A stretch of 64,000 nucleotides of DNA from Candidatus Hadarchaeota archaeon (GCA_964384105.1 CAYLJV010000001.1:384001-448000), one strand, 5' to 3'. Counted from the first letter of the stretch, positions 3,131-14,827 are shown. The notes: generated by a model from the sequence alone, not told the origin. Numbers and translations: made by a program.

Positions 3131-4112
3131 ATTGACAAACTCAGGTACTGAAGCAACATTGCATGCAATAAGGACTGCAAGAGGATATACGGGTAAGGAT
3201 AAGATAGTGAAGATGGAGGGGGGTTTCCACGGAATTCATAATGATGTACTCGTAAGCTTTTACCCACCGGTAAGTAAAGTTGGTCCCAGCTGGGCGCCTT
3301 CACCGTATTTGGACTCATCAGGGGTCCCCTCGGATACAAGGAAAAACACTTTGGTGGCTCCTTTTAATGATATAGCTGCTCTTGAGAGTCTTTTCAGGAA
3401 ACATGAGGGTGAAATTGCTGCTGTGATAGTGGAGCCGGTAATGTTGTTTCATGGGGTGATTCCGCCAAAGGAAGGCTATCTGAAAAATGTCAGGAAGCTC
3501 ACCGAGGAATACAATGTTGTTCTAATTTTTGATGAGGTTAAAACTGGGAGCAAAATTGCTTATGGTGGAGCCTGTAAATATTTTGATGTTGTCCCAGACA
3601 TGTTAACTTTGGGTAAAGCTATTGGATGTGGCCTGCCAATTGCTGCTTTTGGTGGTAAGGAGGAGATAATGAACGAAGTTAGCCAGCAGGGATCAGGGGT
3701 ACATATCGGAACTTACAATGGAAACCCACTTTCTATTAGTGGTGGCCTGGCGGGTCTTAGGAGTCTAACGAGAGATGTGTACAAAAAAATGGACAAGTTA
3801 AGTGAAATGTTAGGAGATGGAATTCAAGATTGTCTGGATGATGAGGGGTTAACTGGTCGTGTTCAACGCGTGTCGAGTATTGGGGCAGTATATTTAGGGA
3901 TAAGTGAAGAGATTAGAAACTTTAGAGAGGCTGCTCGGGTTAATATAGATTTAGGTTGGAGGTACTGGCTTTCCATGGTGAATGAGGGGATATTTTTCTC
4001 GCCGGGTACTGGTGCTGGTGGAAATTGGCATCTTTCGAGTGTACATACTAAGCGGGATATAGAAAAAGTTCTAGAAAAGAACAAAATGATAATTCAGGAA
4101 CTTAGTGATTAG
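2769..4112 (+). CDS. Class-III PLP aminotransferase, glutamate-1-semialdehyde aminomutase (HemL)-like, copy 1
   Basis: WDVDGNEYID, GPLVLGH, NSGTEAT, FDEVKTG, TLGKAIG (PLP lysine), GTYNGNP. Confidence 0.9.
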   Translation: MSKTLESILGEYKDKTSESKKVWERLRKSIVDGVGCAGRYYRPYPLVVDKAEGSRIWDVDGNEYIDFYFDWGPLVLGHSNPKIVKALKEQAEKGTMYGLPYEKLADYVEELKKRYPADLFRLTNSGTEATLHAIRTARGYTGKDKIVKMEGGFHGIHNDVLVSFYPPVSKVGPSWAPSPYLDSSGVPSDTRKNTLVAPFNDIAALESLFRKHEGEIAAVIVEPVMLFHGVIPPKEGYLKNVRKLTEEYNVVLIFDEVKTGSKIAYGGACKYFDVVPDMLTLGKAIGCGLPIAAFGGKEEIMNEVSQQGSGVHIGTYNGNPLSISGGLAGLRSLTRDVYKKMDKLSEMLGDGIQDCLDDEGLTGRVQRVSSIGAVYLGISEEIRNFREAARVNIDLGWRYWLSMVNEGIFFSPGTGAGGNWHLSSVHTKRDIEKVLEKNKMIIQELSD

Positions 4113-4200: not shown

Positions 4201-4497
4201 ATGGTGAAGGTTAGGATAATACCAAAAGTGAAAAACTCCCCTAAAGAAACCGTAATCAAAGGTGAATCAGTAAAAGATGTTATATTGAAATTGCATGAAA
4301 AGCATAGCATCCCCAAGAAAATATATAATAAACATTTAAAGAAGATGATAAGTCCGTTTAGGGGTTTAATAGTACTCCTAAATGGGAAAGCAGTTGGAAA
4401 TTTTGCGGACAAAGAGTATGTCCCGCTATCTGGAGTCGACCAATCAGTTAAAGAAGAAGACGAAATTATTATTATTTTTCCTGCTGCTGGAGGATAA
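4201..4497 (+). CDS. MoaD/ThiS/SAMP ubiquitin-like sulfur carrier
   Basis: 98 aa, beta-grasp pattern (IVLLNG...DEIIIIFPAAGG), C-terminal GG. Confidence 0.85.
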   Translation: MVKVRIIPKVKNSPKETVIKGESVKDVILKLHEKHSIPKKIYNKHLKKMISPFRGLIVLLNGKAVGNFADKEYVPLSGVDQSVKEEDEIIIIFPAAGG

Positions 4498-9382: not shown

Positions 9383-10366
9383 ATGATAGTTGATATTCAT
9401 AGCCATATTATAACTGAGTCTTACTTGGATGAACTCTCTAGTAGGAAGAATGTTCCGAGAATAGAAAGTAAGGGCGACGGAGTCTATACTATTCATTGTA
9501 GCGATTTTCTTTCTTACGACTTTGATGAAAGAATGTATGATTTAGATAGAAAGTCTGAGGACATGAAAAAAGCGGGGGTTGATATGCAAATAATTAGTAT
9601 AGCAATGCCAGGAGTTAATAATTTAAAACCAAAAAATGCTGTCAATCTTGCACGATCAGTTAACAACGAAATTGCAGATATTGTGGAGAAAAGGCCGGAT
9701 ACTTTTGATGGTGTGGCCACTCTTCCATTTATAGATACAGAAGAGGCTCTAAAAGAGTTGGATAGAGCAATAAATGATTTGGATTTGAAAGGTATTTCTG
9801 TTTCATCTAATATAGCTGGTAGAGGCTTAGATGATAAGGCCTTTTGGCCAGTTTATGAAAAAGTTTCTAATTTAAATATACCTATTTTGGTACATCCGAC
9901 TGTTCCTATCATGGGAGATAAGTTGACGAAGTACGGTCTGAATACAGTTGTCGGCTTTGTTTTTGATTCCACAGTAGCTACACTAAATATGGTTTTTGGT
10001 GGAGTCTTTGAACGCTTTCCAGACCTGAAGGTTGTGGTTCCTCACGCTGGTGGAACAATTCCTTATCTCATCAAGAGGATAGATCATCAATATACGATAA
10101 ATCCGAATTGTCGAGAGAAAATCTCAAAAAAACCTAGTGAATATCTGAAATCAATTTACGTGGACACGGCTCAATCTACTTGTGATACTTCTATGAACTG
10201 CGTTAGATCGTTGATGGGAATTGACAAGGTTGTTTTTGGAAGTGATTATCCGTTTTGTTCGCTTGAGGATTCTGTGAATTCGATTAAAGAGATTGGCTTT
10301 TCCGACGAAGAGCTGAATGATATATTTGTGAAAACGGCAGAGAATATTTTTGACTTATCAGATTAG
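9383..10366 (+). CDS. Amidohydrolase family 2 (ACMSD/decarboxylase-like)
   Basis: VDIHSH, ILVHP, HAGGTIPY, FGSDYPF. Confidence 0.9.
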   Translation: MIVDIHSHIITESYLDELSSRKNVPRIESKGDGVYTIHCSDFLSYDFDERMYDLDRKSEDMKKAGVDMQIISIAMPGVNNLKPKNAVNLARSVNNEIADIVEKRPDTFDGVATLPFIDTEEALKELDRAINDLDLKGISVSSNIAGRGLDDKAFWPVYEKVSNLNIPILVHPTVPIMGDKLTKYGLNTVVGFVFDSTVATLNMVFGGVFERFPDLKVVVPHAGGTIPYLIKRIDHQYTINPNCREKISKKPSEYLKSIYVDTAQSTCDTSMNCVRSLMGIDKVVFGSDYPFCSLEDSVNSIKEIGFSDEELNDIFVKTAENIFDLSD

Positions 10367-12875: not shown

Positions 12876-13424
12876 CTATTCAAGATAAATTAATTTAGAA
12901 AATATGCTTTTTGAGTTCTCTCTAATTCTTTGCAGATCCTCTTCACTTGGGAGTCCTCTGATATCCCCCATTCTTCCTTTAGTACTAAGTTCTTTGGACT
13001 CGTGATGTTCGCTTAGAATATACCATTTGCTAAGTACGGAAAATCCTAAGTGTTCGAAGAATTGAGCAATGTATTTTACTGCGGGAATTGCTTCATCTAT
13101 TCCAGTGTGTGGTCCAGAATATGTACAGAAAATTAGAACATTTTTTCCGGGTATTTTAGGAGCTTTTGGTTTTATTCTCCCCTCTTTTCTGTATTCTTTA
13201 AACTTGGTTCTTAGGAAGGAGTCTAAGGGTTCTGCCGGATGCCAGTTAATTGAGGGTGAGCCTATGCATATTAGATCAAAATCAAAAAAATCAATCTGAT
13301 TAGCCTTATCCGCCTTCTTAAGTAAGACATCTGCTCCTGCATCTTCCAGACCCATCTTTACAGCATAAGCTACTTTCTCTGTATTTCCGGTGCTAGACCA
13401 GTAGATAATTGCTACTTTATTCAT
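12876..13424 (-). CDS. Flavodoxin-domain protein
   Basis: IIYWSSTGNTEKVA FMN phosphate loop, IGSPS. Confidence 0.85.
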   Translation of the reverse strand: MNKVAIIYWSSTGNTEKVAYAVKMGLEDAGADVLLKKADKANQIDFFDFDLICIGSPSINWHPAEPLDSFLRTKFKEYRKEGRIKPKAPKIPGKNVLIFCTYSGPHTGIDEAIPAVKYIAQFFEHLGFSVLSKWYILSEHHESKELSTKGRMGDIRGLPSEEDLQRIRENSKSIFSKLIYLE

Positions 13425-13610
13425 TTAGCATTCATTCCTTTACTTTCAAAATAAAGGTCATAAATTCAATTGGTTTATCCTGTCAATAAATAAAAACTTC
13501 TGCATAAAACATCAATATTTTCTAGGGTATTAGCCATACAAATAAGTACTAAATTTGTGTGATAAAAACCAGAATAGATAGATCACCTTTTGAAATTAAA
13601 ACATCGAACA

Positions 13611-13890
13611 TGAAGGGGCCGGGAACGTTACCTCTTTCGCGGACAGGTTGTTGCCTATACTTTAAAAAACCGGCTTCCAGCCGATACAGAGCCTGTCGGA
13701 GCGCCCGACCCCCGTGCCCCCGTAGCTGTGCAAACAAGGAGGTGAGAAACTCCTGCGGGAACACTTAATCCGCTTGTGTTGTTGAACCAATTCAATGGTA
13801 GAGAATGCAACACGTGGCGGAAGCGTGATAATTGAAGTAAAATTTAGGTCTTTTCAATTGAAAAGTTCTCGAGCTTCATCCCCCAACAGA
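13611..13890 (-). ncRNA. Candidate structured non-coding RNA, family not recognised
   Basis: GC-rich island in an AT-rich intergenic region; many nested helices; G-U pairs and GAAA/GGAA loops favour the minus strand; TTTTTATA plus A-rich BRE on the minus strand at ~13918-13937. Confidence 0.6.
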
Positions 13891-13985
13891 TTCACATATA
13901 ATTTTTTTCGACGGTCGTATAAAAATTTTTTTGTTTTAAGACTCGTAGAAGTTTTTCTTTTTAATATCTAATAATAAGGGTTATT

Positions 13986-14008
13986 AAACGAAAAGTTTAT
14001 TAACCACC
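13986..14008 (+). promoter_or_regulatory. BRE/TATA promoter of tenA
   Basis: AAACGAAAAGTTTATTAACCACC, ~25 nt before the start codon. Confidence 0.75.
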
Positions 14009-14026
14009 GCTTCAAAATTTACTACC

Positions 14027-14827
14027 GTGATGTCTTTGAGTTCTAAAAATACGAGAGAAGTATTGGTAGATGAATGGGAAAATAAATCTACTTTTGTTGA
14101 TCAATTGAGGGAGAAATACGATCATCTTTTCCAAAAAATTGCTGAACATCCATTTCTCCTAGAAATCGAGGAGGGAAAACTGCCGTTAGAGAAATTTTTA
14201 TTTTATGCTAAGCAAAATGAATATTACATATCTGAACTAAGATCAGCTGCTTCAGCTGGAGCTGCTCGGGCAACGACTGATTCTGAAAGAAGGATAATGA
14301 TGATGATTGTAAGCATGTTTCCACTGGAGTTATCTGAGTATTGTTTTGGAAAACTTTCTGTGGCAGCAGGTGTGCCGGATGAGGAGATTAAAGCCATACT
14401 TGAAGATCCAGATTTCCCACTTCCAGCCACACGGGCATATACCGATTTTATGTACAAGGAGTTTGCGACCAAACCCGCGGGAGTAGCGACAGCGTCTTTC
14501 ATAACTTGCCCCTGGACTTACAGCTCAGTGGATATTGGAGGTCTTTCGTGTGGTAAAACTTTTGCAAAAGCTCTGCATGACCATTATGGAGTCGACAAAA
14601 AGATCACTGAGGAATATATAGAACATTATGAAACAGACGAAGATTTTGCTATTGGTATAAAGGCTTTGAAAGATGCGGTGAATAAAGATGCGGAAGAGGG
14701 AAATGATAAAATGAGGAATATCCTAGAGTCTAATTTTAAAAGGGATGTAGAATACGAGTATATGTTTTGGGAGATGGCATACAAGCATAATCCTGGTAAG
14801 GAAAGGGAATTTGGTTCTTATTTCTAA
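14027..14827 (+). CDS. tenA: TenA / thiaminase II (aminopyrimidine aminohydrolase) family
   Basis: HPFLLEIEEGKLPLEKFLFYAKQN, PATRAYTDF, catalytic-type Cys in TCPWTY, EYMFWEMA. Confidence 0.85.
   Translation: MMSLSSKNTREVLVDEWENKSTFVDQLREKYDHLFQKIAEHPFLLEIEEGKLPLEKFLFYAKQNEYYISELRSAASAGAARATTDSERRIMMMIVSMFPLELSEYCFGKLSVAAGVPDEEIKAILEDPDFPLPATRAYTDFMYKEFATKPAGVATASFITCPWTYSSVDIGGLSCGKTFAKALHDHYGVDKKITEEYIEHYETDEDFAIGIKALKDAVNKDAEEGNDKMRNILESNFKRDVEYEYMFWEMAYKHNPGKEREFGSYF

Follow-up and report, generated by a model that had tools for sequence, protein, structure and literature searches.

Evidence for a structured non-coding RNA of about 290 nucleotides encoded by seven paralogous genes in an uncultured salt-loving archaeon

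The minus strand of positions 13606-13897 of the window (the whole stretch of 64,000 nucleotides of DNA that was analysed) seems, on balance, to encode a stable, folded non-coding RNA of ~290 nt, which would be transcribed from its own BRE/TATA promoter and would belong to a set of sibling RNAs acting in trans, with a CU-rich loop directed against G-rich ribosome-binding sites. The parts of this reading differ in strength. It is very probable that there is a real, lineage-restricted family of structured non-coding RNAs and it is likely that this family acts in trans, but pairing of the CU-rich loop with Shine–Dalgarno (SD) sequences as the mechanism is a guess, and a tentative one. The RNA matches no known RNA family, and the family of seven copies, which is found in the genome of an uncultured salt-loving archaeon, is new here. 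When the copies are compared, a conserved two-part fold is seen, with a 5' part containing the helices P2 and P4 and a 3' domain containing the helices S1-S3 and an invariant internal loop (Table 1). A previous, sequence-only reading of this locus had proposed a novel archaeal non-coding RNA, a ribozyme or a leader; the core of this proposal is borne out by the compensatory changes, by the G-U excess and by the lack of a match in Rfam, and nothing supports the ribozyme.

Table 1. Positions of the RNA gene, its parts, its paralogs and neighboring tRNA genes (coordinates without prefix refer to the window)
Feature	Position	Strand	Basis or remark
Structured-RNA gene, paralog c1 of 7	13606-13897	minus	nhmmer and CM R1
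Paralog c2	C3:120335-120640	minus	
Paralog c3	C4:50920-51214	plus	
Paralog c4	C3:117769-118057	minus	
Paralog c5	C4:84888-85197	minus	
Paralog c6	C1:135545-135843	plus	
Paralog c7	C1:153746-154033	plus	
BRE/TATA-like promoter AAAAAAATTTTTATAC	13917-13933	minus	Predicted from the sequence; ~34 nt upstream of the G-run
5' G-rich segment GGGGGAUGAAG, SD-like	13874-13884	minus	Present in 7/7 copies
Variable region	13832-13873	minus	Different in every paralog; 16-bp palindrome at 13850-13865 in c1
P2, long helix with apical hairpin	13808-13820 with 13770-13781 (region 13770-13820)	minus	Duplex test
P4	13756-13764 with 13714-13722 (region 13714-13764)	minus	GUGUUCCCG with CGGGGGCAC in c1
CU-rich segment UUUCUCACCUCCUUGUUU	13732-13749	minus	Includes 9 nt identical to the 16S rRNA 3' end
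3' domain	13606-13714	minus	Helices S1, S2, S2c and S3; 26 pairs
S1	13704-13712 with 13616-13624	minus	Comparison of the copies
S2	13692-13701 with 13638-13647	minus	Comparison of the copies; includes S2b (GACAGG/CCTGTC, 13642-13647 with 13692-13697)
S2c	13686-13688 with 13649-13651	minus	Comparison of the copies
S3 hairpin	13670-13685 (13670-13684 in the part list)	minus	Comparison of the copies
Loop GCGAAAGAGGUAAC	13627-13640	minus	Invariant in the seven copies of the genome (G000) except for one extra A (c1, c5)
U-run GUUUUAAUUU	13594-13603	minus	After the last helix; candidate terminator
G002 copy, 3' domain alone	G002:C102:2458-2554 (L014 1501-1597)	minus	CM match
tRNA-Ser(GCU), tRNA-Pro(UGG), tRNA-Thr(UGU)	L012 3833-3922; L008 4500-4577; L009 3804-3877		67-170 nt from c5, c6 and c7

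The locus and its paralogs

The gene lies in a GC-rich island (52-57% G+C at 13600-13800, when compared with 22-27% in the flanks), as had been described before, between a flavodoxin gene (12876-13424, minus strand), which is located ~190 nt downstream on the same strand, and tenA (from 14027, plus strand). The structured part of c1 ends at 13616, and its 5' end is placed at ~13893-13900 from the position of the promoter. No ORF is open in all copies, as there is at least one stop in each of the six frames of each of the seven paralogs, and therefore nothing is coded, in agreement with the earlier statement that the island has no credible ORF. The neighboring tenA gene is apparently leaderless (13990-14030), with CGAAAAGTTTATTAA ~23 nt before its GTG/ATG start.

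A homolog search, which had been proposed as a check of the earlier reading, has identified seven paralogs, including c1, and one copy of the 3' domain in a second genome (G002). Four further copies were obtained by a DNA search of the 1.6-Mb genome of the host (G000) and two more were added with nhmmer, such that exactly seven full-length paralogs, and no partial copy, are found by the nhmmer profile search. All seven are also recovered by covariance models (CMs): with the models R1 and R2 of the 3' domain the scores are 82-113 bits, the R1 match of c1 (13606-13714) being 92.8 bits. The pairwise identity over the full length ranges from 48 to 75%. This multi-copy state, which is not visible from a single locus, changes the likely kind of RNA.

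Structure of the 3' domain and the RNA strand

The 3' ~105 nt of the seven copies were aligned, and 26 pairs in four helices (S1, S2, S2c and S3) were written on this alignment. In the seven copies 96.7% of the 182 cells pair and 7 pairs are changed on both sides, which is reached by 0 of 500 shuffles; on adding the G002 sequence (n=8), 95.7% of 207 cells pair and 10 of the 26 pairs are changed on both sides, again with 0 of 500 shuffles reaching these values. The copies are kin and the structure has been derived from the same sequences, and therefore these shuffle counts overstate the significance, but the margin over versions in which the partners are slid by 1-3 columns, where 40-55% is paired, is large. 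The folding of c1 as a single sequence is not better than that of its shuffles (z = -0.80 for the minus strand and -1.47 for the plus strand), so that the structure rests on the comparison of the copies and not on folding energy.

Several helices that had been noted from the single sequence are preserved in this comparison. The helix proposed between 13615-13625 and 13709-13720 is supported as S1, the GACAGG/CCTGTC pairing is supported as S2b, and the hairpin placed at 13671-13683 corresponds to S3. The proposed hairpin at 13695-13709 is not supported: it can pair in 92.5% of 40 cells, but this is equaled by 230 of 500 shuffles, and it competes with S1 and S2. The purine-rich internal loop GCGAAAG(A)GGUAAC is unpaired, and its sequence does not vary among the seven G000 copies, except for the extra A.

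The paired columns contain 19 G-U cells and 1 A-C cell, and when read on the minus strand 95.7% of the cells pair, as compared with 87.0% on the plus strand. This 19:1 ratio implies that the selected RNA is the minus strand, which agrees with the direction of transcription suggested previously, and a plus-strand transcript is rejected as the structured RNA on the same count.

The 5' part

In the 5' part, including P4, MAFFT does not keep the register, and therefore an alignment-free test was used, in which the duplex energy of the two segments of each copy is set against that of segments taken from different copies, with the seven copies permuted in all 5040 ways. For P4, which has 7-9 base pairs in each copy, the own-copy mean is -13.5 kcal/mol and the mixed mean is -9.95 kcal/mol, and 4 of the 5040 exact permutations are as good. 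For P2, the same comparison of own-copy and cross-copy duplexes gives p = 0.0018 (5000 random permutations), and three positions of P2 in c7 are changed on both sides. The long interrupted helix that was previously drawn between ~13762-13781 and ~13808-13826 is thus retained, as P2. Extra hairpins are present between P4 and S1 in c5 and c7. Two other elements of the earlier reading are not family features: the hairpin at 13737-13754 (GGAG/CUCC) cannot form in c5 and c6, and the 16-bp palindrome falls inside the region that differs in every paralog.

This variable region, the about 50 nt between the G-run and P2, was also considered as an antisense guide, which is rejected, as its matches elsewhere in the genome are just 13-16-mers at the level of chance. 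The 5' G-run could pair with the CU-rich stretch in every copy (-6 to -21 kcal/mol), which would form a pseudoknot with P4, but the own-copy duplexes are no better than the cross-copy ones (2425/5040) and covariation support is not found. Likewise, own-copy-specific support is found neither for pairing of the G-run with the 3' tail (2571/5040) nor for pairing of the next 5' segment with the linker (813/5040).

Promoters, transcript ends and expression

Upstream of the G-run, at a distance of ~30-40 nt, the copies c1, c3, c4, c6 and c7 have an A-rich BRE followed by TTTTTATA or TTTTTAAC, and these promoter-like motifs resemble those that precede the tRNA genes of the same genome; the corresponding motifs of c2 and c5 are less clear. 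The BRE/TATA element that had been noted at ~13918-13937 is therefore kept, as the putative promoter AAAAAAATTTTTATAC, with similar motifs at a similar distance in c3, c4, c6 and c7. Archaeal transcription terminates at oligo-U, and on this ground the U-run that follows the last helix is a candidate terminator.

On the opposite strand, the motif CGAAAAG-N-ATTTAATTTC is present in the 3' flanks of five of the seven copies (c2, c3, c4, c6 and c7; for example at L011 ~4335-4360 and L010 ~3935-3960), and it is degenerate in c1 (13589-13603) and c5. It matches the BRE/TATA elements before tenA and before the tRNA genes of the genome, and it looks like a convergent antisense promoter that would point into the RNA gene.

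Five public sequencing runs contain all or part of the stretch, and one of these (X5) is a metatranscriptome. Four of the runs were compared with the locus; the DNA run X4 gives no coverage and X3 covers parts only, which has no bearing on the habitat. In X5, six short contigs, 90-99% alike, cover 13618-13753, with a summed word depth over this interval of about 100-500, for which there is no silent control stretch as a reference, and with zero coverage of 13450-13617 and 13765-14050. The loose ends of the contigs resemble other paralogs, and two contigs join adaptor sequence at 13618 and 13620. The contigs carry no information on the strand, the ends or the level of the RNA; the coverage is support, not proof, for an abundant RNA in a close relative. 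The adaptor junctions fit a 3' end of the minus-strand RNA at the foot of S1 equally well as a start of a plus-strand RNA ~25 nt after the TATA element of the flank.

It is conceivable, but very unlikely, that the main product is such a plus-strand transcript, made from the consensus-like promoter of the 3' flank, with the minus-strand structure being secondary. The presence of the flank motif in most copies, its agreement with the promoters of the tRNA genes and tenA, and the adaptor junctions are all compatible with this explanation. However, the 19 G-U cells would be A-C mismatches in a plus-strand RNA, in which the pairing falls to 87.0%, and the flank motif is degenerate in c1 and c5.

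Genomic neighborhood

The 28 ORFs near the copies are, by Pfam, unrelated housekeeping genes, encoding among others flavodoxin, TenA, TrkH, a VTT-domain protein, triose-phosphate isomerase, nitroreductase, PEP carboxylase, a PP-loop ATPase and two TFB paralogs, and genes for a transposase, a reverse transcriptase or Cas proteins are not found among them. One integrase gene is located ~1.8 kb from c2. The copies c5 and c7 are convergent (head-on) with their downstream genes. For three of the seven copies a tRNA gene is found within 170 nt, which is far above the chance level (2.3% of random 300-nt intervals are within 260 nt of one), and the SRP RNA gene is ~250 nt from c5.

Some further features of these regions may be mentioned. 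The two TFB (TFIIB) paralogs (L010 1546-2499 and 4773-5708) are 2.3 kb apart, the second one is flanked by c4 and c2, and wHTH and integrase genes are nearby. About 100 nt upstream of c3 and c4 (L011 ~3921-3986 and L010 ~4298-4375) there is a GC-rich hairpin that is preceded by an A-run and followed by a U-run; it has the look of a two-way terminator and can also be read as ORFs of 22 and 26 residues with hydrophobic tails, and the small ORFs upstream of c3 and c4 have no similarity to each other in tblastn. A CRISPR-like array of 47 repeats is found at G000:C1:451229-454340, ~3.2 kb past the right end of the window. A link between CRISPR and the RNA was considered and is rejected, as the one array of the genome has an unrelated repeat.

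The unrelated neighbors of the copies suggest that the RNA acts in trans, and together with the convergent arrangement of c5 and c7 they rule out a common role as leader. The flavodoxin gene downstream of c1, on the same strand, had led to the suggestion of a flavodoxin leader, but this suggestion is rejected, given the different neighbors of the other copies and the two head-on arrangements. In the more general form of this explanation, a ligand would be sensed by the 3' domain, which would then control the downstream gene (flavodoxin here and pstB in G002) as a cis-acting leader or riboswitch; there is only a very small probability for this. The constant co-oriented position upstream of functionally related genes that characterizes this class is not seen, and each copy has a promoter-like motif and a U-run of its own; the X5 contigs, which end at the last helix without continuing toward the flavodoxin gene, are a weak argument in the same direction.

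Distribution and the G002 copy

When the family, order, class and phylum are searched with the CMs, matches are found in two of the 66 genomes of the phylum, G000 and G002, the order and class searches being of the same 65 genomes. Many of these 66 genomes are incomplete MAGs, and searches of more than 40 genomes were done with stricter filters, so that the result reads as "not found in those searched" and not as "absent." The G002 match, in a genome of the same genus, scores 47.9 bits (E = 6e-8) with a model that was built without the G002 sequence. By blastn nothing is found in 40 relatives and, for the 5' part, nothing below E = 0.18 in five congeners. When one genome per prokaryotic species, JGI metagenomes and viral contigs are scanned for exact patterns, five loci are obtained, all of which are taken as chance: with R1, two of them reach 17.3 and 9.3 bits and have many broken pairs, and the other three do not match at E<=10. 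The plasmid and phage collections give no match. Conserved synteny is not detected in the congeners, as TenA and PEPC are not found at the thresholds used, and the closest named relative of a neighboring protein (PEP carboxylase, 73% identity) is from the candidate division MSBL1.

The 3' domain is the only part that the G000 copies have in common with the G002 copy, in which compensatory changes occur in S1, S2 and S3. The G002 copy is located within a 175-nt spacer between pstA and pstB in a pstC-pstA-pstB operon; in G003 this spacer is AT-rich and has a length of ~70 nt, and in G004 it is 1 nt. It follows from these differences in length that the element has been inserted in G002, or lost from the others. 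The 3' domain of G002 is followed by CACUCACCUCCUCUCC, a perfect anti-SD-like tail, and ~65 nt later by AAGGAGGUG at the start of pstB. These two segments could pair, which would be in agreement with control in cis, but they are not paired in the minimum-energy fold of G002. This single copy in pstCAB may differ from the other ones in its mode of action.

The apparent insertion in G002 also bears on the possibility that the family is a structured repeat that was once mobile and became dispersed (MITE-like or the relic of an integrating element), which would be transcribed but have no cellular function of its own. This explanation would account for the many copies in one genome and the near-absence in relatives (2/66), for the location of copies near tRNA genes and for the integrase gene near c2. 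However, conserved terminal inverted repeats or target duplications are not found, only AT-rich chance inverted repeats; the copies must be old, because they are only 48-75% identical; the compensatory changes and the 19:1 G-U bias reflect selection on one RNA strand; the promoter-like motif has been kept by the copies, less clearly by c2 and c5; and there is no transposase or reverse transcriptase nearby and no match in plasmid or phage collections or, by pattern, in viral contigs. An identity as the end of a MITE or an IS element is contradicted by the chance nature of the repeats, the divergence of the copies, the lack of a transposase in the 28 ORFs and the lack of a plasmid or phage match. 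Overall, a purely selfish repeat is made less likely by the age and divergence of the copies, by the absence of terminal repeats and by the selection on one strand, and an origin as dispersed element, to which the G002 insertion, the narrow spread and the proximity to tRNA genes still point, keeps a low probability.

Comparison with known RNA families

A covariance-model search of the whole window against Rfam 15 (4227 models), which the sequence-only reading had named as a check, gives 0 matches at the gathering thresholds, and at E<=10 there are five chance matches in 13300-14100, of at most 21.4 bits. When all eight copies and their flanks are searched, only the neighboring SRP RNA and tRNAs match, and ARAGORN finds 0 tRNA or tmRNA genes in the window. 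These results agree with the earlier failure to match the locus to tRNA, SRP RNA, RNase P RNA, tmRNA or riboswitches. Archaeal RNase P and SRP RNAs are similar to the element in size (~290-310 nt), in forming a GC-rich island in an AT-rich genome and in having their own promoter, but both genes are located elsewhere in the genome, at G000:C3:148469-148758 (RF00373, 219.8 bits) and G000:C4:84328-84638 (RF01857, 190.1 bits), and the element has no match with either model. An identity as RNase P RNA, SRP RNA or tRNA is therefore rejected.

The element also resembles OLE, GOLLD, HEARO and raiA, which are orphan large structured non-coding RNAs found by comparative genomics: these, too, are hundreds of nucleotides long, have many helices that covary and unpaired loops that are conserved, and had no assigned function when they were discovered. 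Those RNAs differ in that they occur in many genera and have Rfam families, whereas the element has no match with any of these families and is present in two of 66 genomes, with seven copies in one. The motifs of the known structured-RNA surveys are presumably included in Rfam. Among the papers searched, none was found on MSBL1 and non-coding RNA together, and only the known motif surveys were found on the discovery of archaeal structured RNAs.

It is possible, although unlikely, that the RNA serves as a scaffold or sponge for proteins, or belongs to an RNP as its RNA subunit (like 6S, CsrB or Y RNA), with the invariant loop (compare GCGAAAGGGUAAC) and the hairpin loops as protein sites and with the likeness to 16S rRNA being incidental or a mimic of the site of a factor that binds the 16S 3' end. 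The size and the conserved multi-helix fold, the unpaired and nearly identical loop of the seven G000 copies, the high depth in the RNA library and the location of copies near tRNA genes and, in one case, beside the SRP RNA gene, which is the kind of position that stable-RNA genes have, would agree with this. However, no protein gene co-occurs beside the copies, a core RNP would hardly be expected to have so narrow a distribution, and K-turns and C/D or H/ACA boxes are not seen by eye in the alignments; in the Rfam search, a snoRNA-type match above chance is also lacking. The size, the invariant loop and the gene position fit this explanation about as well as they fit the preferred one of sibling RNAs pairing with SD sequences.

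The 16S rRNA-like segment and a possible mode of action

P4 is predicted to close a loop that holds the CU-rich stretch. The anti-SD sequence that had been noted in c1 is indeed present: UCACCUCCU at 13736-13744 is identical to the 3' end of the 16S rRNA of the same genome (GAUCACCUCCU). However, UCACCUCC is exact in three of the seven copies only (c1, c2 and c4), degenerate in c3, c5 and c7, and hardly present in c6, and therefore the anti-SD sequence is not a fixed feature of the family. The genome itself does use SD-led initiation, as follows from the 932 long ORFs, of which 216 have an SD-like 5-mer at -18 to -3 and 47 have one in a control window. The longest genomic complements to the CU-rich loop, of 13-14 nt, are located at the ribosome-binding sites of three long ORFs on contig C2, which encode a periplasmic-binding protein, a class-III aminotransferase and an aldehyde:ferredoxin oxidoreductase; judged from complementarity, these genes may be considered leads, not targets. 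The aminotransferase and aldehyde:ferredoxin oxidoreductase genes have a common 21-nt leader, GTAGAACAAGGAGGTGAAAAT (L042, G000:C2:206500-223500, ~10180-10200 and ~14750-14770), which contains a 13-nt complement of the CU-rich loop.

In the proposed mode of action, the CU-rich stretch, which is like the 3' end of 16S rRNA, would be held in the loop closed by P4 and would pair with the G-rich ribosome-binding sites of mRNAs, by which the initiation of translation would be blocked; the sister copies might provide dosage or separate regulation, and the 3' domain might be a stabilizing or protein-binding module. In the manner of sibling sRNAs, there are several paralogs (seven), each with a promoter predicted from the sequence (less clearly for c2 and c5), and the CU-rich motif is located in the P4-closed loop, although it is exact in three of seven copies and can also pair with the G-run of its own RNA.

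Two known systems are of interest for comparison. sRNA41 of Methanosarcina mazei is an archaeal intergenic sRNA that, according to a review, has been proposed to mask ribosome-binding sites in polycistronic mRNAs (PMC5867862). This proposed masking in an archaeon is the point of likeness; sRNA41 differs in that it is apparently single-copy and apparently has no homology to the element, whose match with the 16S 3' end is exact in 3/7 copies. LhrC1-5 of Listeria monocytogenes are multicopy sRNAs made from several paralogous genes, each with its own promoter; their redundant CU-rich sites pair with ribosome-binding regions, and the LhrC copies are thought to be additive (PMC4132741). They are, however, bacterial, much shorter and have a Rho-independent terminator, and they have no sequence or fold in common with the element, which is ~290 nt long, has a 3' domain of several conserved helices and is only predicted to pair with targets.

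Several observations argue against the preferred explanation. Pairing with SD sequences is weakened by the fact that UCACCUCC is exact in only 3/7 copies, with c6 having almost none of it, and pairing between the G-run and the CU-rich stretch would hide the proposed seed. An RNA of ~290 nt with a strongly conserved 3' domain is far larger than is needed for a base-pairing sRNA. The G002 copy inside an operon looks cis-acting or inserted, which does not favor action in trans. The family is found in only 2/66 genomes, and the consensus-like promoter on the opposite strand in five of seven copies is not accounted for.

A more far-reaching possibility, with a rather low probability, is a new class of large archaeal RNA, which has a conserved loop with the 16S 3' tail in copy, beside an SD-like 5' end, and could compete with ribosomes for SD sites or with mRNAs for the anti-SD sequence. 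The seven copies, each perhaps checked by its antisense promoter, would then tune initiation throughout the genome, the 3' domain would be a sensor or docking site, and the pst copy of G002 would be a use of the same element in cis.

Significance

To our knowledge, almost no non-coding RNAs beyond the universal ones have been described for the uncultured archaeal phyla. Here, a large multi-helix RNA is found, whose fold is supported by compensatory changes and which is apparently abundant in an RNA library and a member of none of the 4227 curated families. Seven genes in a genome of 1.6 Mb are a large investment, which argues for a real function. The covariance model and the eight sequences provide a starting point for finding relatives in hypersaline metagenomes. 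If the element spreads, as is hinted at by its insertion in the pst operon, it would be a new structured dispersed element that is under selection at the RNA level, and if the likeness to the 3' end of 16S rRNA is functional, it would point to a new control of translation initiation in archaea.
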